Virus genome (UHGV): UHGV-0182056
Direction: 5' to 3' (one strand)
DNA length: 35,022 nt
Source of the DNA: a virus
Part shown: positions 125-28,411 of the stretch, in pieces
Numbering within the stretch: position 1 is the first letter of the stretch
Layout of the letters: each line of letters starts with the position of its first letter
The notes under the pieces: generated by a model
What the model was told of the DNA's origin: nothing
Database searches by the model: none
The model's input: the letters and a program-made list of their open reading frames with translations, nothing else
Translations under genes and position numbers: made by a program

Positions 125-200
125 GGCCCCTTAGCTCAGTGGTTAGAGCAGGCGACTCATAATCGCTTGGTCGCTGGTTCAAGTCCAGCAGGGGCCACCA
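125..200 (+). tRNA. ileX: tRNA with CAT anticodon; sequence looks like enterobacterial tRNA-Ile2 (lysidine-modified CAU, ileX/ileY type); intact gene used as the prophage attachment site
   Basis: 76 nt with 7-bp acceptor stem GGCCCCT/AGGGGCC, D-arm AGCTCAGTGGTTAGAGC, anticodon loop CTCATAA, T-arm GGTTCAAGTCC and 3' CCA. Ile2 rather than Met is from recall of the E. coli gene and the yqjH neighbour, not from the anticodon. Confidence 0.8.
154..200 (+). repeat. attL core: 3' 47 bp of the tRNA, exactly repeated at 33978-34024
   Basis: Exact 47/47 direct repeat read from the sequence (GACTCATAATCGCTTGGTCGCTGGTTCAAGTCCAGCAGGGGCCACCA). Confidence 0.85.
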
Positions 201-2112: not shown

Positions 2113-5100
2113 GCGTCGTATCCCCCCTGATCGCTGTAGTTACTCCTGGCTTTTGCCTTCAGCCTGCGTTCACGTTCATCAAGCTGGCGGGCCACCTCCC
2201 GCGCAATATCCTGCGCACTTTGTCCTGGTTGCGTCTGGATGATGATCTGCGTCGGTGCCTCAATCCGGTAAACGGGCGTCACAGTGGCTGCGCGATTAAT
2301 CATCGCTTCACCGCCTTTCGTGGGAAGTGCCAAAGGATGTAACGGCGGAAGCTCTGCAGGCGCAGCAGCAACGCCCATCATTCCGGCAACAACGGCAGCC
2401 AGTGCAGCTGTATTTCTCCGGCTGGTCACATTTGCCGGACCGTTGACAATTTCAGGCCCGTTTTCACCGACAATACCGAACTGCCCGCGCGGGATATACC
2501 CCCCACTGTCATACATCCCCGCAAAGCCATATCCCCATGACGGAAAGCCACCTGATGGCATCATCACTTTACCGTCTGTATTCACCGTCGCAGGTTGCTG
2601 ACGCGTCACGCTTTCCGGCAGTTTCGCCTTTGCTGCCTCTTTACTGACAATGCCGAGTTTCTCCAGCAACCAGGAAACACCGGATTTCAGGGAGTCCAGC
2701 GGATGCATGACCATATTCAGCCCTTCCGCCAGTGCCTCCCCGAATCGTCGCCCCATTGTCGCTGCGCTCTGCAGTTCGGCAGAGGTCGACTTAACGGGCG
2801 TCAGCAGATCAGTAAACCAGCCCCACAACGCCTGCACTTTGTCGCCAATCCACTGAAACACAGGCTTAAGTGGTTCGAATGCTGCACTGATGGGACCTGC
2901 CGCCGCTTTGAATCCTTCCACCACGCCACCGAGAAATGCGGTGATGGGTTGCCAGTATTTCCAGACAACCAGCGCCACGCCCGCCAGTGCAGTAACCACA
3001 AGACCTATCGGACTGAGCAGAGCACCTAACAGACCAGATATGGCATACAGGGCAACGCGCAGCATCGCCAGCGGGCCGGATGCGAGCACACGCAGCACCG
3101 AGCCTGCGGCAGCCAGCCCACCGCGTAGTGCTGCCAGTGGATTCATAAACATCACAGCAACAGCACGTAAACCGGATAATCCAGACCGCAAAAGTGCAAC
3201 CGGCGCACCTGCTACAGTTTTCAGGACATTCCCCGTCAGTGATACCGTGCGACGCAAAGACGACAACGGAGCAGTAAGTAAACCCGCTGCGTTGCCCGAT
3301 GAAGCAAGCCCGCGTCGCAGCAGTGCCAGTGGTGCGCCAGCCAGCCAGGACAACGTGCTGCTGGTTCGAGTTACTGCTGCCGTAACGGAAGGTAACGTTT
3401 TGATACCCAGCACAGAGAATCCCAGACGGATCACTGCCAGCGGCCCCAGCACTGCAGCCAGCGCCACCGCTAAGGTGCCGAGGCCTACGGTAACCGCAGC
3501 CACAACAGCCACTACTTTCATCAGTGTGCCTGTCAGTTCCGGGTTAGCTTCCACCCAGCGGCGCAACGCCCCCGTGACGCTTTTCACCGTGTACAGAATA
3601 TCCATCAGCGGCTGGCGCAGCGTTTCGCCCAGGCTGCTGAAGGTGTTCTGCGCTCCGGTTTTGACCAGCAACCACTGAGCAGAAAGTGAGTCTTTGTTGA
3701 TGTCGGATTCTTTCTGCATCGAACCGAGCGCATCATTGCCCGCTGTCAGTTTTAGCTGGCGCTGTAGTTCCGGCAGGTTGTTTGCCAGTTTCGCCGCGTC
3801 ATCGCCAAACTCTTTACCAAACAACATGGTCATGGCAGACAGACGCTTGTCCTGCGGCAGTGCGTTTACCTTCTCCAGTACACGCTGGATGGTTCCCATC
3901 GCATCCTTCGTCATCTGCTTTTCAATCACTTCAGGATTGAGTTTCAGCAGATTCATCCCTTCAAAGAAACTCTTGCTTTGCATGGTGGCAATGGACAATT
4001 CACGCACCATCGCGTTTGCTGCACTGGCTGCAACCTCCGGCGCAGCGCCCAGTGTCAGAAAGGTGGAACCCAGTGCTGCCGCTTTACGATAATCCAGACG
4101 GTCAGCCACACCGCCCAGACGTTGCATCACATCAATGATGTCCGCCCCTTTCGACATGGCGTTATCATCCAGATAGTTCAGCGCATCGCCGAGCTGTTCA
4201 ATATTGCGGGTAGGTATTTTGTAGAGCTGGGCGATTTTCCCCAGACTTTCTGACAGTTCATCCGCTGGCAGCTCAAAGGCTGTTGCCGCCTTTGCTGCCG
4301 TACTGGCGAAGGCCAGCAGGTCACGTTTCTGGTCTTCCCAGCTGTCGTCAGGGTTTGCCACGTTCATGCGCGCACCACCTTCAACCAGTGCAGCGAAGTC
4401 CACCGCACCGTTTTCCATCGGCAACTGTTCGCTGGCAGCCTTGATGGCATCCTGCATTTCGTAAAAACGCGCAGTGCGGTTGCCATTATCGTCACGCAGA
4501 CCATTGACCTGCTTTGCCACACCTTTCATGGCATCTTCCATGCTGGTATAGCTTTTTACCGCCGCCATCACTGGCGCGCCCATTGCCAGCCCTGCAGCCG
4601 TGGTGGTGGCTCCGGCTCCTGCGATACGATCGCGCACTTCAAGCCGTCTTGAGTATTGTTCTCTGGCAGCGTTCATCCGTGCCTGTTGTTCACCCAGACG
4701 TTTAAGTGCTTTTTGCTGGCCCTCCAGTGCCTGCCTTGTTTCTTCAGCATTTTTCTTAAGTTCTCGCTGGGCACTACTGAGTTGCCTGGTATCAATCCCT
4801 GATTCTTTAAGTGCCTGACGTTGTCTCTGGACCGCCCCCAACAAGCCGTTATAGGTCTGCTGAAGTTCCTGTACTCGTGTTTTGGCCTGACTGAATAACT
4901 TTGCCTGCGCGGCGGTTGGCCTGTTAGTGGCAGCAAATTGTGTGGCGAGTTTTGCCGCCTCTTCGCGGGCTGCGTTCAGGTTGTTGGCTGTTATGGCTAG
5001 TTGCGAGCGCGTCTTGCGAAACTCATCAATTCTGCCAGCCTGCTTATTCAGTTCTTTGAGGCTGTTTCTGGTATTCTGAATTGCGCCAGCCAGCTCTTTC

Positions 5101-5186: not shown

Positions 5187-5615
5187 CGTTGGCCCCGCTT
5201 CTCTGAATCGCTTTATACCGCCATTCCAGCACTTCGGTCAGCGGCATAACGTCAGTAACGGATGGCGGCCAGTGAAAAATGGTGGCGATATCTGCCACCA
5301 GATCGTCAACCGTCAGGCTGTCGGTAAACCGGCAAGCACCGACTTCTTCAACAAAAAAGTGACAACCTCAACCGACATGGCAGTGAGATCTGCCGGGTCC
5401 ATCTCTGCAATTTCCTGTGCAGTCAGTGCCGGGCTGGAGATGCGGGGGATCACGGTCATCATCGCGTTCACATCCATATCCATAATCGCCTGCAGGCGTG
5501 TACCGCGCAGCGCACCGGACTGCGGTTTACGCAGCACAATTTCGGTGATTTCTGTTTTACCGCGCTTGATGGGGGTATCCAGTTGAATGGTCTTTTCAGT
5601 CTGCTTATCGCTCAT
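5179..5615 (-). CDS. E': gpE+E' fusion made by programmed -1 ribosomal frameshift at T TTT TTG (slip site at plus-strand 5352-5358)
   Basis: My manual translation of the -1 frame after the heptamer stays open for about 57 codons and ends at a TGA overlapping the start of T; same arrangement as P2 E/E'. Confidence 0.65.
5313..5615 (-). CDS. E: Tail assembly chaperone gpE (zero-frame product)
   Basis: 100-aa ORF between tail tube and tape measure genes; contains slippery TTTTTTG near its 3' end. Confidence 0.8.
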   Translation of the reverse strand: MSDKQTEKTIQLDTPIKRGKTEITEIVLRKPQSGALRGTRLQAIMDMDVNAMMTVIPRISSPALTAQEIAEMDPADLTAMSVEVVTFLLKKSVLAGLPTA

Positions 5616-5669
5616 TTTGCTGTCCTGTAAATTGGGTTCTGGCGCGGTATCCCGCGCCGTTCAGATATA

Positions 5670-6185
5670 TCAGAGGCCGAGTGCGTTGCGGTGTGCTTCC
5701 ATCAGGTCCACACCATCCACAATTTCCACCATGTTGATAAGGTCCACTTCATAGAGCACCTCACCATTGATGGTCAGCTTCGCGTAGCTGTTGGTACTGG
5801 TCACTTTGGTGGTGTTGCTTTCGCCCGTCTTCCACTCACCGGAATCCACTTCTTTGTGACGTCCACGCACCACAAGCTCCACGGCCTGCACTTCCCCGGT
5901 ATCGTCACGCTGGATAGAGCCGGTAAAGCGCAACTGGATGCCATCCACCGTGGCTTTGCCCATCTGCTTAAACAGCAGCAGTTCAGTACCACCAATGGAA
6001 AATTCTGTGTCCAGCGCACTGTCATCAAGCCCCAGATCCACATCCACTGCACCCGGCATTCCGCCGCCGCGATACTTCTCATATTTGCGGGTGAATTTCG
6101 GCAGCGTCAGCGACTCAACGATCCCCTGCCAGTTGTTCCCGTCGTTAAACAGGTTCAGGTGTTTTAATTTGCGTGGTAAAGCCAT
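5670..6185 (-). CDS. FII: Tail tube protein gpFII
   Basis: 171 aa, at the P2 position directly after the sheath gene. Confidence 0.85.
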   Translation of the reverse strand: MALPRKLKHLNLFNDGNNWQGIVESLTLPKFTRKYEKYRGGGMPGAVDVDLGLDDSALDTEFSIGGTELLLFKQMGKATVDGIQLRFTGSIQRDDTGEVQAVELVVRGRHKEVDSGEWKTGESNTTKVTSTNSYAKLTINGEVLYEVDLINMVEIVDGVDLMEAHRNALGL

Positions 6186-6194
6186 GTTGTCCCC

Positions 6195-7367
6195 TTACGC
6201 GCTGACCTGGCTGGCGAAATTCACCAGGTACTGATCGGTGATGCGCTGACGCAACATCAGGTTTTCAAGTGGCGGCACTGGCGTGTAGTCGTAGTCGATG
6301 GTGAGTTTTCCGGCTTTCAGAGTATCTTTGTCGTTCACCGACTCATCCAGCCAGCAATCACCACCAATGAGATAGCCCTGACTGACCAGGCTGCGCATTT
6401 TGGCGCGGATACCTTCGATAATGTCGCGGGCCAACGACGGGTTCAGCGGTTTGTCCACCGCCCACATATGCGCTTCTGCCATTGTGTCCATAAGTACCTG
6501 CGCCGTGCGGGTGTAGTTTTCGAAGGCAAAGAGCGGGTCATCACTCAGGCAGCGGGAACCCCAGAAGCGGAAACCGTCTTTGCGGATAAGGGTGGTGACG
6601 TCGCTCTGGTTCAGCAGTCCCGCATCTGTTGCCGTGTCCTGCAGATCCCAGAACACATCAGCAGAAATTCCGGTGACACCGTTCACGCCCACGTTGGACA
6701 GGCTTTTGTGCCATCCGGTCTGCTCATCAATTTTGGCGCGCAGACCAAGCGCACGGGCGGTGGCATATGCCGTTGCTTCGGCATTCAGTACCGTGTCCCA
6801 GCCAGTAAAGTCAGGCCAGATCAGCATCCCTTCGCGCTGGCTGAAGTTTTCACGGTAAGTGATCGCCTCCTGCACTGTCTTGCAGCCATACGCTGACAGG
6901 TAAGCAAACCCACGTAGGCTTTGCGCCACGCTCAGCAACTCAGTCGCAACGGCTTTGTTATCATGGCCTGGCACGCCGAGAATGCGCGGTTTAACGCCGA
7001 GCTGTGACTGGGCAGATAACAGAGCTTTCATGCCTGTTTTTTTACCTTCAGCAGTCACTGCGCCGATGATATTGGTCGTGGTTTCTTCTTCCGTTTCACC
7101 CTGCGGCACACGCACAACAACGGTCACGGGTTTTGCCTGGTCAGCGATGGCATCCAGCGAACGGGCCAGCGTGCCGGACTCACCCGCTTTACCGCTGGCA
7201 GTCAGCACATCAGTGATCAGCACGGGTTTATTAAGAGGAAACATTTTTGCATCGGCATCATCGCCCGTGCAGACCATACCCACGATGGCGGTGCTCACCG
7301 TGGTAATGGATCGGGTGCCTTCGTTGACTTCAACAACGCGCACCCCGTGGTGGTAATCCTGAGCCAT
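6195..7367 (-). CDS. FI: Contractile tail sheath protein gpFI
   Basis: 390 aa, sheath-like sequence, followed by the tube gene. Confidence 0.85.
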
Positions 7368-7443
7368 AGTGGCGAACCTCCTGATTGGATTAGGCTTCGC
7401 CCTATGTTGAAGTGATTGTGCCTGACAAACAGCTAAGCGCAGT

Positions 7444-7461
7444 TGTACCGTTATTCACACA
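7444..7461. promoter_or_regulatory. Candidate Ogr-dependent late promoter element (TGT-N12-ACA dyad) upstream of the FI tail operon
   Basis: TGTACCGTTATTCACACA lies 77-94 bp upstream of the FI start; nearly the same as the dyad in the O-P intergenic region. Confidence 0.5.
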
Positions 7462-7509
7462 AAATGACGGTATTTGTCTGCTTGCAGGGATAATCAAAAT
7501 AATGCTGAT

Positions 7510-8076
7510 TCAGGGGGATTCATTACTCTTATTTGCCGGAAATTTTCTATAAATTGTGGAAACACCCACATCAAAAATCAGTGCAATACGCTGTCTTGAT
7601 TCTCCGGCCTCGAGTAAGCGTCCAATCTGTGCCCACTGTTCGGTAGTCAACTTAGGACGGCGTCCACCTACTCTGCCTTTGGCGCGAGCTGCAGCAAGCC
7701 CCGCCCTGGTACGTTCAACTATCAGTTCGCGTTCCATTTCAGCCAGGGCACCCATGACATGAAAAAAGAAACGGCCCATTGGGGTACTGGTATCAATACT
7801 GTCAGTCAGGCTTCGGAAATTCACACCTCGCTGGCGCAACTCTTCTATCAACGTAACAAGATGCCGCATACTGCGCCCCAACCTGTCCAGCTTCCAGACA
7901 ACCAGCGTGTCTCCTGCCGATAGTGTCCTGAGCAGCTTTTTCAGCCCCGGTCTGTCGGACTTGGTGCCACTGATTTTATCCTCAAAAATCCGCTCACATC
8001 CCGCACAGTTCAGTGCATTGCGTTGCAAATCGGTGTTCTGGTCATTTGTTGACACGCGTACATAGCCAATAAGCAT
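7510..8076 (-). CDS. pin: Serine-recombinase DNA invertase of the Pin/Gin/Cin/Hin family
   Basis: MLIGYVRVSTNDQNTDLQRNAL...LVVWKLDRLGRSM...FFHVMGALAEMEREL closely resembles e14 Pin / Mu Gin as I recall them; gene abuts the left crossover site. Confidence 0.85.
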   Translation of the reverse strand: MLIGYVRVSTNDQNTDLQRNALNCAGCERIFEDKISGTKSDRPGLKKLLRTLSAGDTLVVWKLDRLGRSMRHLVTLIEELRQRGVNFRSLTDSIDTSTPMGRFFFHVMGALAEMERELIVERTRAGLAAARAKGRVGGRRPKLTTEQWAQIGRLLEAGESRQRIALIFDVGVSTIYRKFPANKSNESP

Positions 8077-8131
8077 GATCATCCCCCTGAATAAAAACCG
8101 GAGATGATGCCAGTTAGCCGTTATCTCTGCA

Positions 8132-8157
8132 TTTTCATAAACGTTGGTTTGGGAGAA
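8132..8157. other. Left recombination site (gix/pix-like) of the invertible tail-fibre segment
   Basis: TTTTCATAAACGTTGGTTTGGGAGAA; its outer 15 bp are a perfect inverted repeat of 10037-10051 and the whole resembles the 26-bp gix site as I recall it. Confidence 0.65.
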
Positions 8158-8496
8158 GCGGCCAAATTGCCTGCGATTAGTGGCTCTTTATCATCATCTG
8201 GCTGGATAAAAATCCCTGTTATAGAGGGGAAGTCTTTTATTATCCAATGGGGAAGAATCGGACCTTCTGATAGTAAAACTGGTGTTGCAACAGGAAGTTA
8301 TCCTATTGCTTTTCCAAATTCTGCATTTATGGCATTTATTGCTGAAAAAACCGCAGTATCCACAGGCCCAATAGGTATTAATTCCTGGGGAGTGTCCGAA
8401 CTAACAAAAACAGAATTAAAGGCCATTTGTGCTGCAAGGACTATATCAACTTCAGCCGCAACTGAAACAGGTGATTTTCTGGTACTGGGATATTGA
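8144..8496 (+). CDS. Silent alternative tail-fibre C-terminal cassette (no own start; would be fused to the constant fibre region after inversion)
   Basis: Open frame runs through the left crossover site and encodes ...VGLGEAAKLPAISGS..., sharing the GLGE junction with the active fibre; AT-rich. Confidence 0.6.
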
Positions 8497-8966
8497 GCTT
8501 CCATAAGGATTATAAAATGTCGAGCATAATATACTACAGCTCTATAAATAATGCATTTTACCCTGAGCATTTGAAACAAGAATATATTAAATCTAATTCT
8601 TTTCCAGCAGATGCAAAACCCGTTAAATATTCTGTTTTCGAAGAATTTGCACTTAAACCAGCACCAGAAGGAAAATATAGATGCGTTGGTGAAGATGGAA
8701 TGCCATCATGGGCAGATATTCCACCACCAACACATGAGGAACAGATTGCCGCAGCCGAATTGAAAAAGCAGCAATTGATTAACCTGGTCAACGAATACAT
8801 GAACAGTAAACAATGGCCCGGTAAAGCGGCTATTGGTCGTCTGAAAGGTGAGGAACTGGCGCAATATAATTTGTGGCTGGATTATCTGGACGCACTGGAA
8901 CTGGTTGATACCTCCAGTGCTCCAGATATTGAATGGCCTACGCCTCCAGCAGTTCAGGCCAGATGA
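8493..8966 (+). CDS. Alternative tail-fibre assembly chaperone (Tfa')
   Basis: C-terminus LWLDYLDALELVDTSSAPDIEWP parallels the C-terminus of the active Tfa (LDYIDAVTATDTSTAPDVIWP). Confidence 0.7.
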   Translation: MSFHKDYKMSSIIYYSSINNAFYPEHLKQEYIKSNSFPADAKPVKYSVFEEFALKPAPEGKYRCVGEDGMPSWADIPPPTHEEQIAAAELKKQQLINLVNEYMNSKQWPGKAAIGRLKGEELAQYNLWLDYLDALELVDTSSAPDIEWPTPPAVQAR

Positions 8967-9540
8967 CATCCGGCGCGGTGCTGGTATCTGTTGCCGTCAC
9001 CGCGTCAATGTAATCCAGCACGGCGTTAAGTCGGGTGTTTTCTGTCTGCGTCAGCTTCCGCACGGCCTGTAATTTCAGTTGAATCAGACTGATAGAAGCC
9101 ATTGCAGCATCAATCAGCGACTGGCGCTGTGCTTCTGCCGCTTCTACTGCGGCGCTATGCTGTGCCTCAGTATCGGTCACCCATTTCTCACCATCCCATT
9201 TATCGTATGGCGTTAACGGTGCGAGAGTGGTTGTTTTTTCGGGATAGTCGCCTGGTGCTGTGATTTCTTTGGCATCTCCCGTTTCGGTGTTATAGACAAT
9301 TTCACCGCGATGGTCTGGCACATATTCCCATGAGTTAAAATCTGCTGAGCGGCAGATAGCATAACCAGCTTTATGTGTAACTGGCGCATCTAAACAAGAA
9401 CATGCCGGGATACCGACGCCAACAGCAAGATATTCAGTTGATGTGGAAATATATTCCCGCGTTTCACCATCATAATTATAAACGGTAATATCTCCCGCCT
9501 TTGTGGCGATGAGTTCCTTATTTAATATAGCTTTATCCAT
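8938..9540 (-). CDS. G: Tail-fibre assembly chaperone (gpG-like), currently expressed orientation
   Basis: 200 aa; N-terminal ...ITVYNYDGETREY... typical of this family; start overlaps the fibre stop. Confidence 0.8.
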   Translation of the reverse strand: MDKAILNKELIATKAGDITVYNYDGETREYISTSTEYLAVGVGIPACSCLDAPVTHKAGYAICRSADFNSWEYVPDHRGEIVYNTETGDAKEITAPGDYPEKTTTLAPLTPYDKWDGEKWVTDTEAQHSAAVEAAEAQRQSLIDAAMASISLIQLKLQAVRKLTQTENTRLNAVLDYIDAVTATDTSTAPDVIWPELLEA

Positions 9541-11099
9541 CAGGCAGCCCTCACGATATAATTAAAGGCAATGTTACGGGGTCGATTTTCGTTTGCAGTT
9601 GGAACAATTCTTGAAGCATCAAGGCCAATCACTTTTGGGTAAACAGCGCCGTCTGCTCTTTCTGTCACCATACTTCTGGTTAAGGAGAAATAACTATTGT
9701 TTGTAGAGGGACTCAATGGCACTATGGCCCCCTTAAACGAGCCTGCTGTTTCCCATATTGAATAATTTTCAGTGTTTACAGTTCTGAACTCACCATAGAT
9801 ATTACGTATGGCATCGCCCTGAGCTGATAATATTGCCCTCCCCGTATCCATACCACGTCCGTCATCCCAGCCACGAATAAACTCACCACGTAAATCAGGC
9901 AATTTTTTTGTCGGGTAAGCCTTTGCCAGTTCCGGGTATTCTTCAGCAGAAAATGCCGCACCGTTGCATTTCAGCCAGCCTGTTGGCGGAGTGGCGGAAG
10001 GCCACGGAACAGGCACACCAACGGGTAATGCCGAACCTTCTCCCAAACCAAGGTATGCGAGAAGACCAGCTACATCCTTTCCACTCAAATTAGTCAGCGT
10101 ATTGTCCAGCGGTTGTTTACCTGCCAGTGCATTAAGCATTGTCGTGGCAAAGTTCGGGTCATTCCCCAGCGCCGCCGCCAGTTCGTTCAGTGTATCCAGT
10201 GCCGCAGGTGCAGAACCCACCATTGCCGCTATCGCCGATTTCACAAAAGCCGTAGTGGCAATCTGTGTATTGTTGACCGACTGCGCCGCCGTGGGGGCTG
10301 TTGGCGTTCCGGTGAGTTCCGGACTCAACAGCGGCACTTTCAGTGCCAGCGCATTATTAATGGTGGTACTGAATTTCGGATCATTGTTAATGGCTACGGC
10401 TATTTCTTTCAGCGTGTCCAGCGTGGCTGGCGCACCATTAATCAGGGCTGTCAGTGCCGCCTGAACAAACGCGGTGGTCGCAAGTTGCGTGGTATTATTC
10501 CCCGCCGCTGGCGTCGGCGCTTTGGGGGTTCCGGTAAATATCGGGCTGGCTTTTGGCGCATACTGTGAATGTGGGTCCGCTGCGGCAAGGTGTTTTGCCA
10601 TCAGGTCATCCACATACACCTTCAGCTCCAGTGCCTTATCATCCACATACTTGCGAGTTGCCAGTACTACAGCAGGGTCGATTTTCAGGGTGATATTGTC
10701 CGTACTGCTGGTAATCAGCACCATGCGCACGGTCTGGGTGCGCCCGCTGCCTTCAGCCAGTTGCGGCTTATAGCTTTCCGGGCAGTTGCCCACGGCAATC
10801 AATGCCCCGGACTCATCAAACAGGCCCACTTCACGTATCCACCAACCGCCCTCGTTTTCAGGGATCACCTGTTCAGCAATAATCTGGCTGCTGTTCTGCG
10901 GGTCGATATAGAGCATATTCAGCGCAGCCCGGCGTTTCTCATTTACCAGTGCAGTCTGCTTTGCGTCCGGCGTTGGCAATACTCCGCCACCATCGCCCAC
11001 CGCCATATGGGTAATTTTTAGCGGCACACCGAGCGCGGCGGAACTGGCAAGTTTCGCCGCGCCAATATCCGTCAGCAGGGTATAAAATTTTGTGCTCAT
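9540..11099 (-). CDS. H: Tail fibre protein gpH (constant N-terminal part plus invertible C-terminal part)
   Basis: N-terminus MSTKFYTLLTDIGAAKLA...MAVGDGGG resembles P2 gpH; the C-terminal ~170 aa lie inside the invertible segment. Confidence 0.85.
   Translation of the reverse strand: MSTKFYTLLTDIGAAKLASSAALGVPLKITHMAVGDGGGVLPTPDAKQTALVNEKRRAALNMLYIDPQNSSQIIAEQVIPENEGGWWIREVGLFDESGALIAVGNCPESYKPQLAEGSGRTQTVRMVLITSSTDNITLKIDPAVVLATRKYVDDKALELKVYVDDLMAKHLAAADPHSQYAPKASPIFTGTPKAPTPAAGNNTTQLATTAFVQAALTALINGAPATLDTLKEIAVAINNDPKFSTTINNALALKVPLLSPELTGTPTAPTAAQSVNNTQIATTAFVKSAIAAMVGSAPAALDTLNELAAALGNDPNFATTMLNALAGKQPLDNTLTNLSGKDVAGLLAYLGLGEGSALPVGVPVPWPSATPPTGWLKCNGAAFSAEEYPELAKAYPTKKLPDLRGEFIRGWDDGRGMDTGRAILSAQGDAIRNIYGEFRTVNTENYSIWETAGSFKGAIVPLSPSTNNSYFSLTRSMVTERADGAVYPKVIGLDASRIVPTANENRPRNIAFNYIVRAA
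10038..10063. other. Right recombination site (gix/pix-like), inside the tail-fibre gene at the constant/variable junction
   Basis: TTCTCCCAAACCAAGGTATGCGAGAA, inverted relative to 8132-8157; encodes the shared ...LGLGE... junction. Confidence 0.65.
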
Positions 11100-11701
11100 G
11101 GATTCACTCTCATTGTGTCAATAACATGGACCGCCCCGCCTTCATGCGCGGTGCCGCCGGAAATAATTGTTTCGTTGATATACGGATAGATCGTGATTTC
11201 TTCGCCAAGATAGCTGGCGGCTCCCACCCAATGCGGGCCGCTGGTCTGCAGGTTGATGGACATGCCGATCATGTGACGGCTACATGGTTTGGCATCGCTT
11301 ATCAGTCGCTCAAGTTCCAGATAGGTATCTTCAGTGATGCCCTGGTCCTGCACGCCGATATCCAGGCGAAACGTGCCCGGTGTTTCTCCGGTCTGCCACC
11401 ACTCAATAATGCGGATCAGAAAGCCGAACGGCTCCACCACCCGCCGCACGGCACTGGTGGTCCCTTTATGCTGATGAATATAAAAAGCATCCTTCACCAC
11501 CTGGCGCTTGACGCTTTCTGTCCAGCCCTCGTCCCAGCGATCCACAGAGAACGCCCAGGCGAGGTAAGGCAGGAAACTGACCGGACAGGTTGCCGGATTC
11601 CACAAGTCACGCAGCGGCACTTGCAGATCAGAAATCCCGCTGCAGGTTTGCGCCAGTCGGCGCTCCAGTGGTGTTGAACCCGGAGGCAGCAGACTATTCA
11701 T
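11096..11701 (-). CDS. I: Baseplate protein gpI
   Basis: 201 aa, P2 position between J and H. Confidence 0.8.
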   Translation of the reverse strand: MNSLLPPGSTPLERRLAQTCSGISDLQVPLRDLWNPATCPVSFLPYLAWAFSVDRWDEGWTESVKRQVVKDAFYIHQHKGTTSAVRRVVEPFGFLIRIIEWWQTGETPGTFRLDIGVQDQGITEDTYLELERLISDAKPCSRHMIGMSINLQTSGPHWVGAASYLGEEITIYPYINETIISGGTAHEGGAVHVIDTMRVNP

Positions 11702-12602
11702 CCGTTCCTCCGTTGGTTACGCTCCACTGCGTACATGATGCCGCCTGTGTTTTATTCAGAACCACATCCGCCAGCGGAGAAGCCAGTTCCACACGTTGAA
11801 CACCCTCAACATGCAGCGCGGCAAAAATAGCACTACGGCGAATATCCCGACCGAGCCGCGTCTGACTGGCGATGTACCTCTGCAGGCTGACTTTTGCCGC
11901 TGCCATTACCGGCTCTGCTTCCGGTCCCGGATAAAGAAAAATGGTGGCTTCCACACGGTACGGGATGATTTCTGCGCTGCGAACCGTAAGACGGTCAGCC
12001 ACCGGGCGGACGTTCTCACTGTTCAGAGCTTTTTCCACCATGTCCAGCAGGTCTTTTTCTGCAGTTCCATCGCCTTCGCGGCTAAGGACAGTCAGCACCA
12101 CCTCTGCAGGTGCCGGGCTGGTTGCACTGGCATCCGCCACCCGGCCGTCGGCGCTTCGGGCATGAAATTCATAAGCTGCAGTTGGCCCCGCAACTGAAAG
12201 CCCTTCAAAGGCTGCAGGCACACGCAGGCGTAACGCTTCATCGCTTTCCATCACAGCTGCAACGGGCGGCACAGCGTCATTATCAGCAGGCGTCACCGTC
12301 AGGCGTTTCACGTTGTAGTTGGCAGCGAGCTGGTCAAGATCGCTGCCCATCGCGTAAGCCACCATCACAGCCTGCGCGGCTTCGTTAATGCGCTGGCGCA
12401 GAAGCAACTCACGGTAAGCGTTCTCCTGCAGCAATTTGGTGACGGGTTCAGATTCCAGTTCCAGCGTGCGGATCACTGCTTCCTGCTCATCTTTCGGATG
12501 AAGCGCCACAAATTCGGCCTTGCGTTCGGCAAGCAGCGTCTCAAAGTCCGGCACATCCACAATCTGCGGCGCAGGCAACTGCGAAAGGTCAATCACTGCC
12601 AT
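11694..12602 (-). CDS. J: Baseplate assembly protein gpJ
   Basis: Track ORF 11694..12641; likely start at MAVIDLSQLPAP, which resembles the P2 gpJ N-terminus. Confidence 0.8.
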   Translation of the reverse strand: MAVIDLSQLPAPQIVDVPDFETLLAERKAEFVALHPKDEQEAVIRTLELESEPVTKLLQENAYRELLLRQRINEAAQAVMVAYAMGSDLDQLAANYNVKRLTVTPADNDAVPPVAAVMESDEALRLRVPAAFEGLSVAGPTAAYEFHARSADGRVADASATSPAPAEVVLTVLSREGDGTAEKDLLDMVEKALNSENVRPVADRLTVRSAEIIPYRVEATIFLYPGPEAEPVMAAAKVSLQRYIASQTRLGRDIRRSAIFAALHVEGVQRVELASPLADVVLNKTQAASCTQWSVTNGGTDE

Positions 12603-12948
12603 TCTCTGCTCCTGTTGATACGGAAAGGGAAACAGGCACACCGTTATTACGCCGCCCGGTCAGCTCCACCACCATAGAACCGTCAAAGTTGCTGTTGATG
12701 GTGATGGAATCAAGCGTCAGCCGTGGCTCCCAGCGACTCAGCGCCACATACACTGCCGACATGACCTGCAGGCGTAATGCCGGATTTTGTGGCTGGTCTA
12801 TCAGTGCCGACAGCAGGGAACCATATTCCCGACGGGCAATGCGGCTACCCTGTGGCGTCAGCAGAATGTCCCGCACCGACTGGCGCAGATGGTCAATATC
12901 AGTAATGACTTTGCCGCTGGTATTGTTCATCCCGCTATAAAGCGTCAT
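12589..12948 (-). CDS. W: Baseplate protein gpW
   Basis: 119 aa, position and size fit P2 gpW. Confidence 0.75.
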   Translation of the reverse strand: MTLYSGMNNTSGKVITDIDHLRQSVRDILLTPQGSRIARREYGSLLSALIDQPQNPALRLQVMSAVYVALSRWEPRLTLDSITINSNFDGSMVVELTGRRNNGVPVSLSVSTGAENGSD

Positions 12949-13523
12949 ACCGGGCCTCCGGTTGTATCGCCGCCTTTCAGGACGCCAGTATGCTGATGCG
13001 CATCAACCACGATCCCGTTAGAACTCATCGCTCCGCCGCCCTGGGTAACGCCACCATTGATCACCACTTCGCTGTTAATGCGCGTGCGGTCAGCCTCCAG
13101 TACAAACTCACTGGTTTTCATGGTGATGTTGTCAGCGGCCTCAATGACCATTGATTTGATGCCCCTGACATACCAGCGCCCGGTGGCGGGTTCGTATTCA
13201 AACCAGCCACCGTCAGGATGTTCTGTCACGCAGGCGTCCGCCGACGTCGACGGTGGCGCGAACTGATTCGAATAGATGGCGGGTAACGCAAAGGCGGTTT
13301 CCAGATTGCCGCCCAGACTCAGCAGCACCACCTGCTCACCTTCCGATGGTCGCCACCATGTGCGGGCATTCCCGGCACGCAGCGTCAGCCAGCTGATCCA
13401 GTTGGTTTCAAGCTCGCCCGTTTTCACCCGGCAAAGCCAGTTTTCCCTGTCCACTTCGGTGACTACCCCAGTGCGGATCAGGTTGGTGATAAGGCGCATG
13501 ATTTCGGTTAATTGTGCGTTCAT
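12945..13523 (-). CDS. V: Baseplate spike protein gpV
   Basis: 192 aa, first gene of the V-W-J-I-H-G operon. Confidence 0.75.
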   Translation of the reverse strand: MNAQLTEIMRLITNLIRTGVVTEVDRENWLCRVKTGELETNWISWLTLRAGNARTWWRPSEGEQVVLLSLGGNLETAFALPAIYSNQFAPPSTSADACVTEHPDGGWFEYEPATGRWYVRGIKSMVIEAADNITMKTSEFVLEADRTRINSEVVINGGVTQGGGAMSSNGIVVDAHQHTGVLKGGDTTGGPV

Positions 13524-13569
13524 AGGGAAAGGTTGCCATCAGGGGAAGAAAGGCGGCAGTGCTGCAACT

Positions 13570-13587
13570 TGTATCAGTGCTGATACA
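13570..13587. promoter_or_regulatory. Candidate Ogr-dependent late promoter element (TGT-N12-ACA) upstream of V
   Basis: Dyad TGTATCAGTGCTGATACA, 47-64 bp upstream of the V start. Confidence 0.5.
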
Positions 13588-13591
13588 AAGA

Positions 13592-14038
13592 TCACTCCGC
13601 CAGCCATTGCAGAATCATGTCGCGGGTCATTGCCTCAACATCATCATTTACACCCAGCAGGCGGCGCTCTGCGTAACGGACCTCCGGTCCTTTGCGACTG
13701 ACGCGATCACGCAGGCCGTAATGGTGAACACGGGCAATACGCTGCACCTTGCCTTCAAACTGTACGCTGGCAGAGTCGGCGCTGGCGGCAGTTTTCAGGT
13801 ATTTTGTGGTGCGCAGCTTTGCAAACATCTGACGTTTGATGCGGCCTTTTTTACTGCGTGCTGTTACCCGTCGCGGTTCATAGCTGCTGCCGTCAGGGTT
13901 GCGCTGCATCCTGATGTTCTGCTGCTGTGTCCGGCGCAGTTCCTGCGCCAGCTGGCGCATCATGCGACTTCTGGCGGCTGGCTCCAGATTCGCCAGCAAG
14001 GCACTCAGCCAGTCGTCCACTTTCTGCAGTTCAGCCAC
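13592..14038 (-). CDS. S: Tail completion protein gpS
   Basis: 148 aa, P2 order R-S-V. Confidence 0.75.
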   Translation of the reverse strand: MAELQKVDDWLSALLANLEPAARSRMMRQLAQELRRTQQQNIRMQRNPDGSSYEPRRVTARSKKGRIKRQMFAKLRTTKYLKTAASADSASVQFEGKVQRIARVHHYGLRDRVSRKGPEVRYAERRLLGVNDDVEAMTRDMILQWLAE

Positions 14039-14483
14039 GTTTCACCGTCCACATTTCTTCAGGTTCATCGGGTTCTGCTACAGCTTCAACGCTCGACACA
14101 CTGCCGTCAGTGCTGACCAGCACACGCTCCGTCAGTTGCAGGTTAAGGCTGATATCACAGACATCGTTGCGCAGAATATCCACCTCAAAGGTGAATAGTT
14201 TTTCCCGTAACGCCGGATTATTGATGGCATCGGGCTGGTTATCCCGCAGCCACAGCAAAACCGGGGCCATCAGCAGATTCTGGTCCCCGCTGAAATCCTC
14301 AATCACCGCGTTCAGGGTGTAACGGTACTCCCATGACATGGAGCCGGCCCCCGTGGCAACCAGCGAACCGTTATCCACAAACAGATGCAGTTTGTCCGGG
14401 TTATTGCGGACATAAGGCACCGCTTTATTGAGGGCGTGGCGCAGGGATTGTGGTTTGTTCACTGTTTCGCTCCTGACACGCAA
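14031..14483 (-). CDS. R: Tail completion protein gpR
   Basis: 150 aa, P2 order. Confidence 0.75.
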   Translation of the reverse strand: MRVRSETVNKPQSLRHALNKAVPYVRNNPDKLHLFVDNGSLVATGAGSMSWEYRYTLNAVIEDFSGDQNLLMAPVLLWLRDNQPDAINNPALREKLFTFEVDILRNDVCDISLNLQLTERVLVSTDGSVSSVEAVAEPDEPEEMWTVKRG

Positions 14484-14715
14484 TAATCATGTCCACTTTG
14501 TCTGCACAGACCGCCCAGGCGGCCTCCGTTTCATCCAGCAACGCGTTCAGATCACCGTTAGTGCGCGGCGCTGCCTGATCCAGCCGACACGGCGTCACTC
14601 GCGGACAACCACTGACGGTAAGCTGCACCTCCGGTGAGCGTCGGACGTTCCCGCAGCCGGATAATGTCAGCAGGCAAAGGAGTATCAGCCCAGCGGCGTA
14701 AATCCTCGTTCTCAC
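14425..14715 (-). CDS. lysC: LysC, Rz1-like outer-membrane lipoprotein spanin, overlapping lysB in another frame
   Basis: 96 aa with lipobox LTLSGC after a signal peptide; Pro-rich. Confidence 0.65.
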   Translation of the reverse strand: MRTRIYAAGLILLCLLTLSGCGNVRRSPEVQLTVSGCPRVTPCRLDQAAPRTNGDLNALLDETEAAWAVCADKVDMIIACQERNSEQTTIPAPRPQ

Positions 14716-14986
14716 GTTTCAGTTCCTCTATCCGGTGTTGTCGTTGTCTCAGCAGCGCGCTGGTATGTTCTGCTTCGGCATAGAGCCGCGCCTGCTCCCG
14801 GTTATTGGTTTCAGTCAGAATGGACAGGCTGATAAGCTGGCTGTTGCTCTTTGCCAGTGCCTGGCTTTTGCTCTGCAGCTCGTCTGCCTGCGTGCTGATG
14901 GTCTGGCTGGCATCAGCCAGCCGCCACGTCTGCCAGCCCAGCGCCGCCAGTAATAACGCCAGCATAACCAGCAGCAACCGGTTCAT
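14558..14986 (-). CDS. lysB: LysB, Rz-like inner-membrane spanin
   Basis: 142 aa with N-terminal transmembrane helix and coiled-coil region; follows lysA. Confidence 0.7.
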   Translation of the reverse strand: MNRLLLVMLALLLAALGWQTWRLADASQTISTQADELQSKSQALAKSNSQLISLSILTETNNREQARLYAEAEHTSALLRQRQHRIEELKRENEDLRRWADTPLPADIIRLRERPTLTGGAAYRQWLSASDAVSAGSGSAAH

Positions 14987-15360
14987 GCTGCTACCTGTTG
15001 CGCCATCTGATTACGGGTGATCCAGAAGGCAATAACGGTCAGTAGATAAAAGACCAGGGTAATAGCCCACCCCGTCCAGGCGAGACTTACGACAATCAGC
15101 AATCGCATCACCCAGCTGATAAATACGTTTTCTTTTCGGGTAATGGTCTTCAGCAAAGATGCCCTCAACTCCTGCCAGAGCGGGCCATTCTTAATTAACG
15201 CAGCCAGTGCTACCGGAATTACCGCCCATGTCAGTAAACAGGCTACCCAAACGCCGGACGCTGCCAGTACCGGAAAAATCCCCTGCGGATACACCATTGC
15301 TGCGATTAACAGCGCCATCCATAACATCAGAAACAGCCCGCTGATTAATTTCTTTTTCAT
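14983..15360 (-). CDS. lysA: LysA-like multi-pass membrane protein (lysis timing)
   Basis: Track ORF 14983..15432; likely start at MKKKLISGLF; several hydrophobic helices. Confidence 0.6.
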   Translation of the reverse strand: MKKKLISGLFLMLWMALLIAAMVYPQGIFPVLAASGVWVACLLTWAVIPVALAALIKNGPLWQELRASLLKTITRKENVFISWVMRLLIVVSLAWTGWAITLVFYLLTVIAFWITRNQMAQQVAA

Positions 15361-15361
15361 T

Positions 15362-15874
15362 TCAGTTTGCTCCCTGTAAACACCAGGCCATCTCCCGCGC
15401 ACGGCGGTTATCCAGCCCCTGATTAAACACACCTTTCACATAAACCCAGCGCGGCAACTGTCGGCACGCATCCGCCCAGCGCCGCTGATTGAGTAATTTC
15501 ACCAGCGTGGAACTGCAGGCATTGCCCGTTCCCACGTTGAAGGCAAACGACACCGTAGCGTCATATACCTTCTGCGGCGGCTGTTGTTTCACACACCTTT
15601 CCAGCGCTCGCTCCACACGCAGCACGTTGGAAATCAGTCCTTCTGCTGCCTGTCGTTCCGTAATGGTTTTGCCGGGAATGACGCCTGACGTGTTACCAAT
15701 GCCGTCGGTCCAGACGCCCGCGCTGCACTGATACGGCTGCAGACGACAGCCTTCGTAATCGGCAATCAGTTTCAGCCCCTCCACGGAGGTGTGAAGCTGC
15801 TGAAACCCCGGCAGCGTGGCAGCAATAGCCAGCACGGCCCCGACAAGGCAGCGTTTAACGATTGATGGATTCAT
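15362..15874 (-). CDS. Endolysin, lysozyme-like, with N-terminal signal-anchor (SAR-type)
   Basis: N-terminal hydrophobic stretch VGAVLAIAATLPG followed by an E...D/C...T motif (VEGLKLIADYEGC...WTDGIGNT) typical of T4-lysozyme-fold endolysins. Confidence 0.75.
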   Translation of the reverse strand: MNPSIVKRCLVGAVLAIAATLPGFQQLHTSVEGLKLIADYEGCRLQPYQCSAGVWTDGIGNTSGVIPGKTITERQAAEGLISNVLRVERALERCVKQQPPQKVYDATVSFAFNVGTGNACSSTLVKLLNQRRWADACRQLPRWVYVKGVFNQGLDNRRAREMAWCLQGAN

Positions 15875-16070
15875 AGTCCTCCCGCGAGATCTGCCCGTCG
15901 CGCAGAAGCTGGTAGGCTTTGTGTTTGTAGTACCAGTTGATAGCCAGCATCAGCACACCAATCATCAGGCCGCCCAGCGTTGAGGCATCCTTGATGGACA
16001 AATCGCCCAGCCAGGCCAGCACAACGGCGATGCAGTACGTGATAAAGGCGCTGATTCGCTCAAGCGTCAT
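15855..16070 (-). CDS. Holin (small two-helix membrane protein; candidate pinholin)
   Basis: 71 aa with two hydrophobic helices and a charged C-terminus, directly upstream of the endolysin. Confidence 0.7.
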   Translation of the reverse strand: MTLERISAFITYCIAVVLAWLGDLSIKDASTLGGLMIGVLMLAINWYYKHKAYQLLRDGQISREDYESINR

Positions 16071-16073
16071 AAT

Positions 16074-16277
16074 TCAGTCCCATAGCTGGACGGTCTGCAC
16101 GGTGGTGGTGGTCGGAATGTCCGGCAGCTCCACCTGCAGCCCGTGAGGTAAAAAGGGGCCATATTCGGCAAGCCCCGGATTTGCCTTCAGTACCTGCTCC
16201 GTGACACCCTGCGTGCGCCCGTAATGACGCCAGCAAAGCGCGTCCACCGTGTCATACTGATGTGCACGCACTTTCAT
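16074..16277 (-). CDS. X: Tail protein gpX
   Basis: 67 aa, P2 position between L and the lysis genes. Confidence 0.7.
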   Translation of the reverse strand: MKVRAHQYDTVDALCWRHYGRTQGVTEQVLKANPGLAEYGPFLPHGLQVELPDIPTTTTVQTVQLWD

Positions 16278-22350: not shown

Positions 22351-23049
22351 TTATTTGTTTCTTCTTTGTTCACGCCTTGTCTTGGCTTCGATAAGGCGTT
22401 GAGGTTCAGTGTAAAGCCGTTCTAAAAAAAGATAGGTAAAATCTTCAAGATCCTCAGCAGCAGCTTTATCCAAAATACCTTCATGCGCTCCATCATTTCC
22501 GTCATCTTTAACGCATTCAGCTAGTTCCCTTAAAGCTTCAGGCAGTAGATGATTATCAAATAACCACTCCATTCTTAACCCTAGGCTTCTCCTTATTTTT
22601 TGCGCAGGCCCTTGCTCCCCATCAGGAAGAAGTCCTTTTGTGGCATAATCAAGGCAAAGCCTAAACATGGTTGCTGCTGCATTATAACAACCTATAGCCA
22701 AACATTTCGCCCCTTCCTCATATGCACTATTGATATGCTCAGGTAAGAACTCTGGTGGCTCCTCTACTGCTAAGTCTGCCGGTGATATAGGCCTAACAAC
22801 CTCTGCAACTTCCTTTAAGCCGAATATTCCACTTTCCCAATTATAGCCATCTAAAGTTTTATTTTTCGTTAAAGGTCTGCAAAGAAACATTGTCGTTTTA
22901 TGACACTCTCGGCAAACACAATAGACCTCGTACTCGTATGTTTTACCCCCGCCCAATGCATTGTAAACCCTAGTGCAATTCAGCCCATTCACATCAAACG
23001 CTATTTTTTGTGATCCACATCGTGGACAGTCATCCACTAACATAACCAT
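22351..23049 (-). CDS. Accessory protein: N-terminal Cys4 zinc ribbon plus alpha-helical C-terminal domain; possible HEPN/DUF4145-like fold; function unknown
   Basis: 232 aa, inserted between Q and cos where P2 has no gene; CPRCG...CRECH; C-terminal GNDGAH resembles the GN-AAH core I recall for DUF4145, but no Arg at the Rx4-6H position; strong RBS GGAGGAG; AT-rich. Confidence 0.45.
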   Translation of the reverse strand: MVMLVDDCPRCGSQKIAFDVNGLNCTRVYNALGGGKTYEYEVYCVCRECHKTTMFLCRPLTKNKTLDGYNWESGIFGLKEVAEVVRPISPADLAVEEPPEFLPEHINSAYEEGAKCLAIGCYNAAATMFRLCLDYATKGLLPDGEQGPAQKIRRSLGLRMEWLFDNHLLPEALRELAECVKDDGNDGAHEGILDKAAAEDLEDFTYLFLERLYTEPQRLIEAKTRREQRRNK

Positions 23050-24918: not shown

Positions 24919-27333
24919 TTAATACAGGTTCCGCCACTTATCATCTTCCTGCAAACGCTGGTTCCGATAGAAGACACGCAGGCCTGCTCCTGACGGAATA
25001 CTGCCGCCGCGAAGGAGTAAATCGACCTCTTTCTCGCTGCCATCAAATCCTCTGGACTTCAGTTCATAGACGAGCTGCTGGCGTTGATGGTCTGTAATTC
25101 GCTGTTTGTAGTCTCTACGCCGTTTCGGTTTCACCAGGCGTAACCTTGCAGCCAGTTCCCGGCGCTCTTTTTTGTTCATACTGTGCAGGTAATCGTGCAA
25201 TCCCTTGTCATCCATGCGGGTAATGTCCGTTCTGGTGTCCCCATCAGCTGATTTATCTTTCCCCTGTTTGTTCAAATTTTCAGCAAGGGGACAGTTATTG
25301 CCACGAGTCCAAGGGGCGCAAGCGCCCTGGTCGGCTGCCACCTCCTGAACGTCAACGGCCTTACGAACCATTTTCCACTTCACTGCATGAGTGCAGATCT
25401 TGCCCTCTGCAATGGGTGACCAGATGCCATAAATACGAATACCGTGATCGCCATAGGCGGTTGGCTCTTCGTTGATTTCATAAGCGGTTCTGATGAGTTG
25501 ATATTTGCGGGGAACCAGTACGCCGCCCTGATTCATGATGTAGGTGGCAAAACAACCAGCATCAGCAGCAGCCAGGATGGCATCAAGGCGCGGGTTATCC
25601 AGTACCGGCGCACCTGCTTTTTTGTCACCCTGTTGCCTTGCCGCCTGACCAGCCAGCAATCGCAGTTCACGGTAAGCCTGACGCCCCGGAATGCCAAAGA
25701 AGCGGAATTGCTGAACACGATGCAGAGACGCCCAGGCATTAACGTATTCAGCGTTATCACGCAGGGATTTACCCGTTTCCTTACTGATCTCGCCAGCCAG
25801 ACCACGCCCGTCAATATTCTTACTGATATATTTCGCAATGTAGCTTGTCGGCGTTCCTTTGCGCGGGTTTATCAGCTCAGACTTAAAGCGTGGCCCCGTG
25901 TTATTGCCCAGCTCCTCGCGGTCTTCACGGATGGCAAACTTACGCAACAATGCAGTAATGGCGCGGCGGTCTTTTTTGCGCATGAAACACAACAGGTGCC
26001 AGTGAACTGTGCCGTCATGATGCGGCTCAGCCACCCGCACGCCATACCAGCGCAACCCGGCTTTGTGCATAGCCTTACGAAATGCAGCAAACATGCCGAC
26101 CAGATAATCGCTGCTTTGTCTTACTGTCGCGTTGGTCCAGGTCGGGTTTGGCCTGCCGTTATTTAGCGTGGAATGGAAACGTGACGGACAGGTGATGGTG
26201 TAGAAAACGGCGCAGTCACCACGCATTTCCGCGATAAGCTCCAGGCCTTTAACACAGGCCATCATCTCGTTGCGGCGATGCGCCGGGTTGCTGCTGCTGG
26301 CGTTTACCACATCCTCCATGTTCAGCGTGTCGCCGTCTTCGTTCACCAGTTCATGAGAACGGAAAAACTCCAGCGACTTACGGCGCTGCTCACGTTTATG
26401 CATCACGGCTTCATAGCTGACATAGGGAGATGCTTTTTTGCTGACCAGGCAGACAGCACGCAACTGCTCTTCCCGCCATTCGCAACGCATCTTCCATAAT
26501 TTCCGATACCACCAGTCGGCGCAAAGCATACGCGCCAGCGAACCCGGAATGAGTTCATAAGGCACAGGTTTGCGGCGGTTTCTTTTCCGGCGGAGTTGCT
26601 CAAACGCAGGCGGTATGACATCCAGTCGCAGGGTTTCTGCAGCCACCTTTTCCCATGTCTTGCGGATTTCTTCTGGCTTAACATCATCGGAGGCGTACAA
26701 ATCACCACAAGCGGCATCAAGACACATGCTCATATGCGCAGCGACAAGGGTGGACAGGCGTTTCACCTGATCCTGACTCATTTCAGGCAGGATCAGCAGG
26801 CCGTCCAGCCCTTCATGGCTTGCCATAAAGCGAAAAGAAGTGGATAGCTGACTGTCGCGTACATGCTCCAGTCGTTCCAGACATGGCTTAATCGTCTCAC
26901 GCAAATAGCGGGAATAAGCCTTTGGTCTGCCCAGGCTGCTGAAGTATTCAATACGTTGCATCAGCGGCTTGCTGATATGGGAAGGCTGAGCGTTAACGTC
27001 CGCCAGAATGACCATGTCTGGATTAAAACGCTGCTGCTCATGCGCCAGCTTTGCCCGGCTAATGAGCTTATCCTGCTCCATTTCGCGCTGGACAGGATCA
27101 CGGGATTCATTAAAGAAATAACGCTCCCAGACCTGATCACTCAGTGCCTCGCGGCGCAGTTGTTCCTGCTCGTTATCGGCAGCGTACAGAGTGATCAGGT
27201 TTGAAAGCGCAGAAACCGGCGCAACTTCCGCCGGGTCCAGATAAGGGTTAATGGCCTTTTTCGGGATGTTCCATGAGAATGCTGCGGCGACCTCGTTAAA
27301 GCCGCTGCAGTTGTTCATATCAGCATGGCTCAT
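24919..27333 (-). CDS. A: Replication initiation protein gpA (rolling-circle nickase)
   Basis: 804 aa; size and position fit P2/186 A. Confidence 0.85.
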
Positions 27334-28187: not shown

Positions 28188-28411
28188 ACAGCACCTCCGT
28201 TGTAATGTTTGCCTTTCAGCTCTGCGATTTCCTGACAGGTAATGCAAAGCTGCACACCCGGAATGGCACGGCGGCGTGCTGGCGGAATTGGCGCTTCACA
28301 CTCAATGCAAAGCACGCGGGACACGCCCGGTGTTTTGGCACGGGCAGCACGGATATGGCGCTGGCGTTCTTCTTCAACGCGCTGCTGTACGAGATCCATT
28401 GCATCAGCCAT
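28184..28411 (-). CDS. TraR/DksA-family C4 zinc-finger protein
   Basis: 75 aa; CIECEAPIP...CITC. Confidence 0.7.
   Translation of the reverse strand: MADAMDLVQQRVEEERQRHIRAARAKTPGVSRVLCIECEAPIPPARRRAIPGVQLCITCQEIAELKGKHYNGGAV

Follow-up and report, generated by a model that had tools for sequence, protein, structure and literature searches.

Does the tail-fibre locus of a P2-like prophage encode a single fibre, or two that are exchanged by DNA inversion? The question is raised by UHGV virus genome UHGV-0182056, a stretch of 35,022 bp hereafter called the window, in which a gene for a serine DNA invertase stands beside a segment of about 1.9 kb that is bounded by inverted repeats and carries two opposed sets of genes for fibre tips and their assembly chaperones (table 1). 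The initial annotation of this DNA, made from the sequence alone, proposed that inversion would swap the C-terminus of the fibre together with its Tfa chaperone, by the mechanism of the G segment of phage Mu, the C segment of P1 and the P segment of e14. Our analysis leads us to conclude, with a high degree of confidence, that the locus is a two-state, Pin-type invertible tail-fibre segment lying between fibre gene H and the sheath gene of a P2/186-like prophage; the switch is very probably functional. We present below the crossover sites and reading frames, the invertase and the orientation of the segment in related prophages, and then weigh the other ways in which the locus could be explained.

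Crossover Sites and Reading Frames of the Fibre Locus

The two ends of the segment carry 26-bp crossover sites that are inverted relative to each other, both with an AA core when read from the conserved half-site. The arms of the inverted repeat to which they belong, 8132-8158 and 10037-10063, are 81% complementary over 27 nt and lie 1878 nt apart; they include a perfect 15-bp repeat (TTGGTTTGGGAGAAG / CTTCTCCCAAACCAA), noticed already in the initial annotation, and our analysis confirms both this repeat and the coordinates given for the sites. We estimate that about 0.005 perfect inverted repeats of 15 bp would be expected by chance in 3.1 kb. Scanning of the whole window for 26-mers with two TTMTCNNAAACC half-sites, in which at least 16 of the 20 specified positions match, returned exactly two sites, namely those at the segment boundaries. 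The same scan found one pair each in the loci of Mu, P1 and e14 of strain K-12: in P1 it corresponds to the annotated cixL and cixR, and in Mu it lies on the annotated boundaries of the G segment.

Alignment with known sites, which had been proposed as a check, shows that both window sites are pix/cix-like 26-mers. The left site is identical at 26 of 26 positions to the pin-proximal site of e14 (L005, positions 4606-4631). The right site has the inner half and the AA core in common with the other e14 site, and is close to P1 cixR (TTCTCTTAAACC AA GGTATTGGATAA). The outer half of the left site (TTTTCATAAACG) is off the half-site consensus at two of the 10 specified positions. A search for half-sites with two mismatches allowed gave seven matches in the window, and at least seven were obtained in two of 100 shuffled sequences. 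We also considered a third site, which would turn the locus into a shufflon with at least three crossover sites, and rejected it: only the two boundary sites carry two half-sites, and the lone half-site-like match inside the segment (9678-9689, two mismatches) has no partner half. Since there is no third site, the locus is to be seen as a two-state switch and not as a shufflon.

The coding frames run through both sites in the way first described. The active fibre gene (9540-11099, minus strand; 519 amino acids, hereafter aa) passes the right site as ...AYLGLGE followed by GSALPV..., while the plus-strand frame crosses the left site as ...VGLGE followed by AAKLPAIS... and reaches its stop at 8496. 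The locus runs from the constant part of the fibre gene through the segment itself, with fibre tip, chaperone, opposed chaperone and opposed fibre tip, to the invertase gene, and the two chaperone genes overlap tail to tail by 29 bp. The constant part is common to both fibre forms and its frame is continuous with either cassette. When positions 8144-10051 are inverted in silico, it becomes fused in frame to the silent tip in an uninterrupted fibre of 466 aa, and the same fusion is found in public assemblies (see below); the predicted exchange of both tip and chaperone is thus upheld.

Table 1. Features of the invertible fibre locus, with positions in the window
Feature	Position	Strand	Description
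Serine DNA invertase gene	7510-8076	-	Pin/Cin/Gin family; 188 aa; outside the invertible segment, in the direction of the fibre gene
Predicted Fis-dependent recombinational enhancer	7987-8058		5' end of the invertase gene (gene nt 19-90)
Left crossover site	8132-8157		26 bp, invertase-proximal; minus-strand reading TTCTCCCAAACC AA CGTTTATGAAAA
Invertible segment	8144-10051		1,908 bp, core dinucleotide to core dinucleotide; frame open after in-silico inversion
Silent fibre C-terminus	8146-8496	+	112 aa after GLGE; Gp53-like_C (PF21882, E 2.7e-9)
Silent tail-fibre assembly chaperone	8517-8966	+	149 aa; Pfam Caudo_TAP (E 8.8e-35)
Active tail-fibre assembly chaperone	8938-9540	-	TfaE-like, 200 aa; Pfam Caudo_TAP (E 1.1e-29)
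Active variable fibre C-terminus	9540-10049	-	165 aa after GLGE; Pfam Collar at fibre residues 361-408
Right crossover site	10038-10063		26 bp, inside the fibre gene; TTCTCCCAAACC AA GGTATGCGAGAA
Constant N-terminal part of fibre gene	10052-11099	-	P2 H-type; residues 1 to about 350; Phage_tail_fib at 1-150

The silent cassette had been described as shorter and markedly more AT-rich than the active one, and hence as a module probably acquired by horizontal transfer. It is indeed shorter, with tip lengths of 112 aa (silent) and 165 aa (active) in place of the approximate values of 113 and 170 given before. It is also richer in AT, the G+C content being 0.416 and 0.420 for the silent tip and chaperone, but the active cassette too lies below the backbone, with 0.476 for the tip and 0.488 for the chaperone versus 0.55 where the fibre gene is constant (0.512 for the window). 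Horizontal acquisition is plausible in view of similar cassettes that occur in an e14-like context (see below), yet it applies to both cassettes and not to the silent one alone, given the 90% identity of the active chaperone to e14 TfaE. At the DNA level, stfE matches part of the active tip with 92% identity.

Of note, RefSeq records produced with the Prokaryotic Genome Annotation Pipeline (PGAP) name the homologues of the silent tip, beginning at the equivalent of the ATG at 8104, either 'gp53-like domain-containing protein' or 'hypothetical protein' (L001, L007 and L010). In genomes with the flipped segment it is the other tip, silent in its turn, that PGAP annotates as a short 'phage tail protein'. 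The annotation of silent tips as stand-alone genes is a systematic artefact of invertible fibre segments, and the plus-strand 'gp53-like' or 'hypothetical' gene should be annotated as the silent half of a switch, not as a separate gene.

The Invertase and Its Predicted Enhancer

The open reading frame (ORF) of the invertase spans 7510-8082 on the minus strand, in which the ATG at 8076 is the start homologous to that of related genes and lies 56 bp from the left site; a second in-frame ATG upstream, at 8082, would lengthen the protein by two residues. The product contains the Pfam domains Resolvase (E 2e-53) and HTH_7 (E 1.5e-15) and is 83.5% identical to e14 PinE, 77.1% to P1 Cin and 71.5% to Mu Gin; these three proteins are 72-81% identical to one another, a spread in which the window invertase falls. 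Domains and identities alike bear out the gene as it was first annotated. The protein aligns without gaps to the Gin sequence of crystal structure PDB 3uj3 (residues 1-184, E 8e-93), whereas resolvases match it far less well (E 1e-34 versus 1e-93).

Residues linked to the invertase reaction are retained. Catalytic Ser9 is conserved within the motif MLIGYVRVS. With Hin numbering exceeding that of the window protein by one, the basic residues of helix B that are specific to invertases (Hin K47, K/R48 and K/R51; PMC3798978) are present as K46, K47 and R50, and the residues of the DNA-binding domain required for activation by Fis (Hin Q151, R154 and L155; PMC3798978) as Q150, R153 and L154.

The 5' end of the invertase gene contains the counterpart of a stretch that the P1 record labels 'enhancer of Cin-mediated C-segment inversion'. 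This counterpart is identical to its equivalents at 63 of 72 positions in pinE, 55 of 72 in cin and 53 of 72 in gin, and has two 15-mers of the form G-N13-C at nucleotides 22 and 71 of the gene (8041-8055 and 7992-8006), the same positions as in gin and pinE. The distance from the centre of the first 15-mer to the centre of the near crossover site is 96.5 bp in the window versus 95.5 bp in Mu and e14. This stretch is consistent with, but not proof of, a Fis-dependent enhancer, whose function we infer from the alignment.

A perfect 12-bp inverted repeat (ATTCAGGGGGAT / ATCCCCCTGAAT, 7508-7519 and 8081-8092) brackets the invertase gene from its stop codon to its Shine-Dalgarno sequence. One arm is the Shine-Dalgarno region shared with e14, the other consists of the last codons of the gene, which differ in the homologue of isolate DG342-2. 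About 0.3 such pairs would be expected in 3.1 kb, and we take this repeat as probably due to chance.

On the basis of these features the following sequence of events may be proposed. In the orientation of the window, the minus-strand late tail operon would make the fibre of 519 aa, composed of the constant part and the Collar tip of 165 aa, and then the TfaE-like chaperone. Dimers of the invertase would bind the two 26-bp sites and, with host Fis bound to the enhancer within the invertase gene, would be assembled into a synaptic tetramer. Both sites would be cut at the central AA, rotated by 180 degrees and religated, so flipping 8144-10051. After the flip, the constant part would continue into the gp53-like tip of 112 aa to give the fibre of 466 aa, followed by its own chaperone of 149 aa. 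A population of lysogens would then release virions of two receptor specificities; that the two tips belong to different Pfam families makes different receptors likely.

Orientation of the Segment in Related Prophages

Heterogeneity of orientation had been named as one of the points on which the proposal could fail, and we looked for it among relatives. Complete E. coli genomes were searched with both the window form of the locus and its in-silico flipped form, and each query retrieved best matches of its own. Both sister isolates and copies within a single strain differ in orientation. The genomes of the sister isolates DG342-2 and DG341-1 are equally long, and over 8.7 kb their sole difference is the exact inversion of a segment of 1,583-1,613 bp, the ends of which fall in the same 15-bp repeat as those of the window. 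Strain 13P477T has a prophage in its chromosome and a 37-kb circular copy of it, with the segment in opposite orientations, and the recombined 26-mers are identical to both window sites. The circular sequence, NZ_CP019275.1 (L011, 37,446 bp), has been deposited as a plasmid ('plasmid p13P477T-2') and is also present in the phage collection as CP019275.1. It is 99.8-100% identical to the chromosomal P2-like prophage of this strain over the 4.9 kb compared, with the fibre segment flipped, and probably represents a circular copy of this prophage.

The flipped fibre predicted for the window also exists in public sequences. Among public proteins, some of 466 aa are 94-99% identical to it along 100% of its own length, and the silent tip is joined to the constant part in protein P0002 and in contig PIKU01000012 (L012), which encodes the best of the 466-aa matches. 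This contig is 99.87% identical to positions 10037-16099 of the window over 6,063 bases, then enters the flipped segment, with the second site as its exact end point; the chaperone of the 149-aa silent type follows the 466-aa fibre on the same strand. Disruption of the plus-strand cassette frame in related genomes had been put forward as another possible objection. Relatives that share the orientation of the window keep the silent cassette intact at 99% identity; in L007, the silent tip is intact and 99.1% identical, and the silent chaperone is 98.7% identical. Conversely, a cassette 95.2% identical to that of the active tip occupies the silent position in the relative L006. To the extent that sequence data can tell, the three objections named beforehand are thus answered in favour of the proposal.

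The segment itself is only 94.6% identical between the window (8141-10051) and L012 (6046-7911), versus 99.87% for the backbone, and about 275 bp of the active tip (9572-9847) remained unaligned to L012 by megablast. Judging from these alignments, the receptor-binding cassettes undergo much faster replacement than the rest of the prophage, in line with the usual mosaicism of receptor-binding modules.

The exact pattern of the flipped junction had no match in the genome_contigs collection and two among the metagenome_contigs, one of which (L009) is in the orientation of the window. The other, metagenome contig OKSH01000964.1 (L008), has an e14-like context and ends 73 bp past the site; for these two reasons it is ambiguous, and we discarded it as proof of an expressed silent cassette. 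Its region 11810-14700 matches the silent tip and the two chaperones at 95.6% identity, and an end fragment of the active tip at 85%, in the company of ymfQ-like and stfP-like genes. Past the far site, the contig continues in frame into an StfP-like coding sequence (...TALENLGLGE), which may point to an additional segment or to another fibre gene.

A speculative extension, to which we assign a low likelihood, is that the conserved Pin-type sites also act as junctions by which entire receptor-binding cassettes move between unrelated prophages such as e14-like lambdoid and P2-like elements. This idea fits the divergence of the segment with respect to the backbone (94.6% versus 99.87%), the left site identical to that of e14 and the presence of the cassettes in a ymfQ-stfP context, but the same evidence is compatible both with site-specific exchange in trans and with ordinary homologous recombination in flanking conserved sequence.

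Alternative Explanations

Four points count against the conclusion that the segment is an active switch. The case for inversion in the window genome itself is drawn from its relatives. The silent cassette joined to the constant part is absent from 5,426 complete E. coli genomes (query of 400 bp across the flipped junction, at least 80% coverage), a result that could reflect a bias in orientation, though the joined form does occur in draft assemblies. Upstream of the invertase start codon, as far as the left site, the minus strand yielded no consensus sigma-70 promoter for the gene, a weak negative; the scan for promoters and terminators was uninformative, promoter-like matches being no commoner than in shuffled sequences. 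Finally, the conservation of the predicted enhancer is confounded by coding constraint, which would keep much of it anyway.

Some of these points would be accommodated if the locus were a frozen relic, once invertible and now locked because the invertase gene is silent or a site defective, the 519-aa fibre being the only one made. Besides the lack of a promoter-like site and the silent cassette always found in the silent position in complete E. coli genomes, the departure of the outer half of the left site from consensus could be cited in its favour. Yet that very site is identical to the one of e14, the segment of which flips to about 1:1 in culture (PMC4272514), and both window 26-mers are found recombined within 13P477T. 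Moreover, the invertase ORF is intact with its catalytic and Fis-contact residues, the silent cassettes retain intact frames at 99% identity, and a prophage with a 99.87% identical backbone carries the segment flipped. As to the uniform orientation seen in complete genomes, one P2-like locus of enteropathogenic E. coli (EPEC) keeps about 90% of the population in one orientation (PMC4272514), so that a consistent orientation in consensus assemblies is no argument against switching. We thus consider a locked segment unlikely. Still less probable is a reading of the plus-strand ORFs (8104-8496 and 8517-8966) as ordinary genes in their own right, expressed in place, with the repeat as incidental homology between two fibre genes. 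It is true that an ATG at 8104 opens an ORF of 130 aa and that PGAP calls its homologues as genes, but the first 18 codons of this ORF are spacer and crossover site, no plus-strand promoter was found between 8077 and 8145, and the ORF is devoid of any fibre N-terminus while full-length fusions to the constant part exist. The repeat, furthermore, is an invertase site with two half-sites, identical to that of e14.

A different objection concerns not the locus but the records, in which differences in orientation might derive from assembly error or RecA-mediated recombination instead of the invertase. Contig L012 does break at the repeat, and the assembly of 13P477T has frameshifts. Nevertheless, a repeat of 15-26 bp is far shorter than sequencing reads and too short for efficient exchange by RecA, and the breakpoints of three independent comparisons all lie within the shared repeat at the invertase sites. 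Inversion at such loci in P2-like prophages has also been confirmed by the polymerase chain reaction (PMC4272514). This explanation seems to us hardly credible, the least probable of the three. The two-state, Pin-type invertible segment is then the reading that we retain. It follows for practical purposes that the host range of this prophage is best regarded as two-state, and that assemblies of lysogens of this kind can break or differ at the fibre locus.

The Prophage Carrying the Segment

The segment belongs to a P2-type tail module that occupies the minus strand at 5,300-13,500 and encodes V, W, J, I, H, the Tfa chaperone, sheath, tube, E, the tape measure, U and D. The gene order V-W-J-I-H-(G/Tfa)-FI-FII-E-T-U-D that characterizes the tail module of P2-like Peduoviridae is present with matching protein families, an assignment based on the order of the minus-strand ORFs, on the annotation of homologous loci, on the Pfam families found in L012 (the contig with the 99.87% identical backbone), on matches to GPD and GPA and on the match of the whole window to the P2-like phage Cartapus. 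The invertase gene and the segment of about 1.9 kb form an extra block between fibre gene H and the sheath gene.

Escherichia phage Cartapus is 96.5% identical to the window over 89% of its first 25 kb, and the whole window is a P2/186-like prophage adjoining a tRNA-Met gene. This gene (125-200, plus strand) lies about 130 bp before the start of the similarity to Cartapus at 332, and a gene for a siderophore-interacting flavoprotein (34078-34842, minus strand) is found at the opposite end; both are probably host flanks of the prophage. A CI-type repressor is encoded at 30107-30721 and an integrase at 31300-32313 (both plus strand), the former indicating a prophage that resembles 186 more than P2 itself. 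A D12-class (Dam-type) adenine methyltransferase (27330-28247, minus strand) lies beside replication gene A. Two DUF4145 proteins are encoded on the minus strand: one at 22351-23049, beside the presumed portal gene, is a weak match to the candidate anti-phage system PD-T7-4 (E 1e-6), and the other at 32351-33703, just past the integrase, is a moderate match to the candidate system PD-T7-3 (E 3e-16). Both positions are typical of cargo genes in P2-like prophages.

Comparison with Known Inversion Systems

The invertase family, the sites, the gene order and the in-frame fusion all agree with the mechanism of Mu G, P1 C and e14 P, as had been suggested. The likeness to Mu G with Gin and to P1 C with Cin lies in this mechanism, in the logic of tip-chaperone cassettes and in the position of the enhancer, predicted for the window, within the 5' end of the invertase gene. 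Mu has in addition the same gene order and invertase direction as the window, while its core dinucleotide is GA/TC and not AA. P1 has in cixR a site resembling the right site of the window, but its cin gene is transcribed towards the segment, with cixL at the 3' end of cin. The segments of Mu and P1 are also larger, 3 kb and 4.2 kb compared with 1.9 kb here, and their fibre cassettes show no sequence relationship to those here; the invertase genes alone align.

The P segment of e14 with its invertase PinE, in the cryptic lambdoid prophage of E. coli K-12, is the closest system by its invertase (83.5% identity) and by its sites, one identical and the other sharing inner half and core, as detailed above. 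It has a similar layout too, with a constant part, two opposed tip-chaperone cassettes and then the invertase, and tfaP and tfaE overlap tail to tail by 29 bp just as the chaperone genes do here. The two elements differ in that e14 is a defective lambdoid element whereas the window contains a complete-looking P2/186-like myovirus prophage; in the constant part, which is StfP/YcfK in e14 but a P2 H-type fibre with a Phage_tail_fib N-terminus in the window; and in the silent cassette, StfP/TfaP in e14 versus a gp53-like tip and a 149-aa chaperone here.

Loci of the same phage type as that of the window are found in Cartapus, 500465-1, Klebsiella phage KP12 and EPEC E2348/69, all of which carry, between H and the sheath gene, an invertase along with paired genes for fibre and chaperone. 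Those of Cartapus, 500465-1 and KP12 have other combinations of cassettes, only 37-76% of positions 7400-10400 being covered. One P2-like EPEC locus has three repeats and four states, in contrast with the two sites and two states of the window, the comparison being one of organization. Experiments on e14 and on two P2-like EPEC prophages have demonstrated inversion and mixed populations (PMC4272514), and a survey of hotspots in P2-like phages has reported DNA invertases, with inversion of adjacent genes, at the locus of the receptor-binding protein (bioRxiv 10.1101/2024.10.15.618418). The system described here is thus already known: its mechanism is a textbook one, its activity in P2-like prophages of E. 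coli has been published and near-identical loci are publicly available in both orientations.

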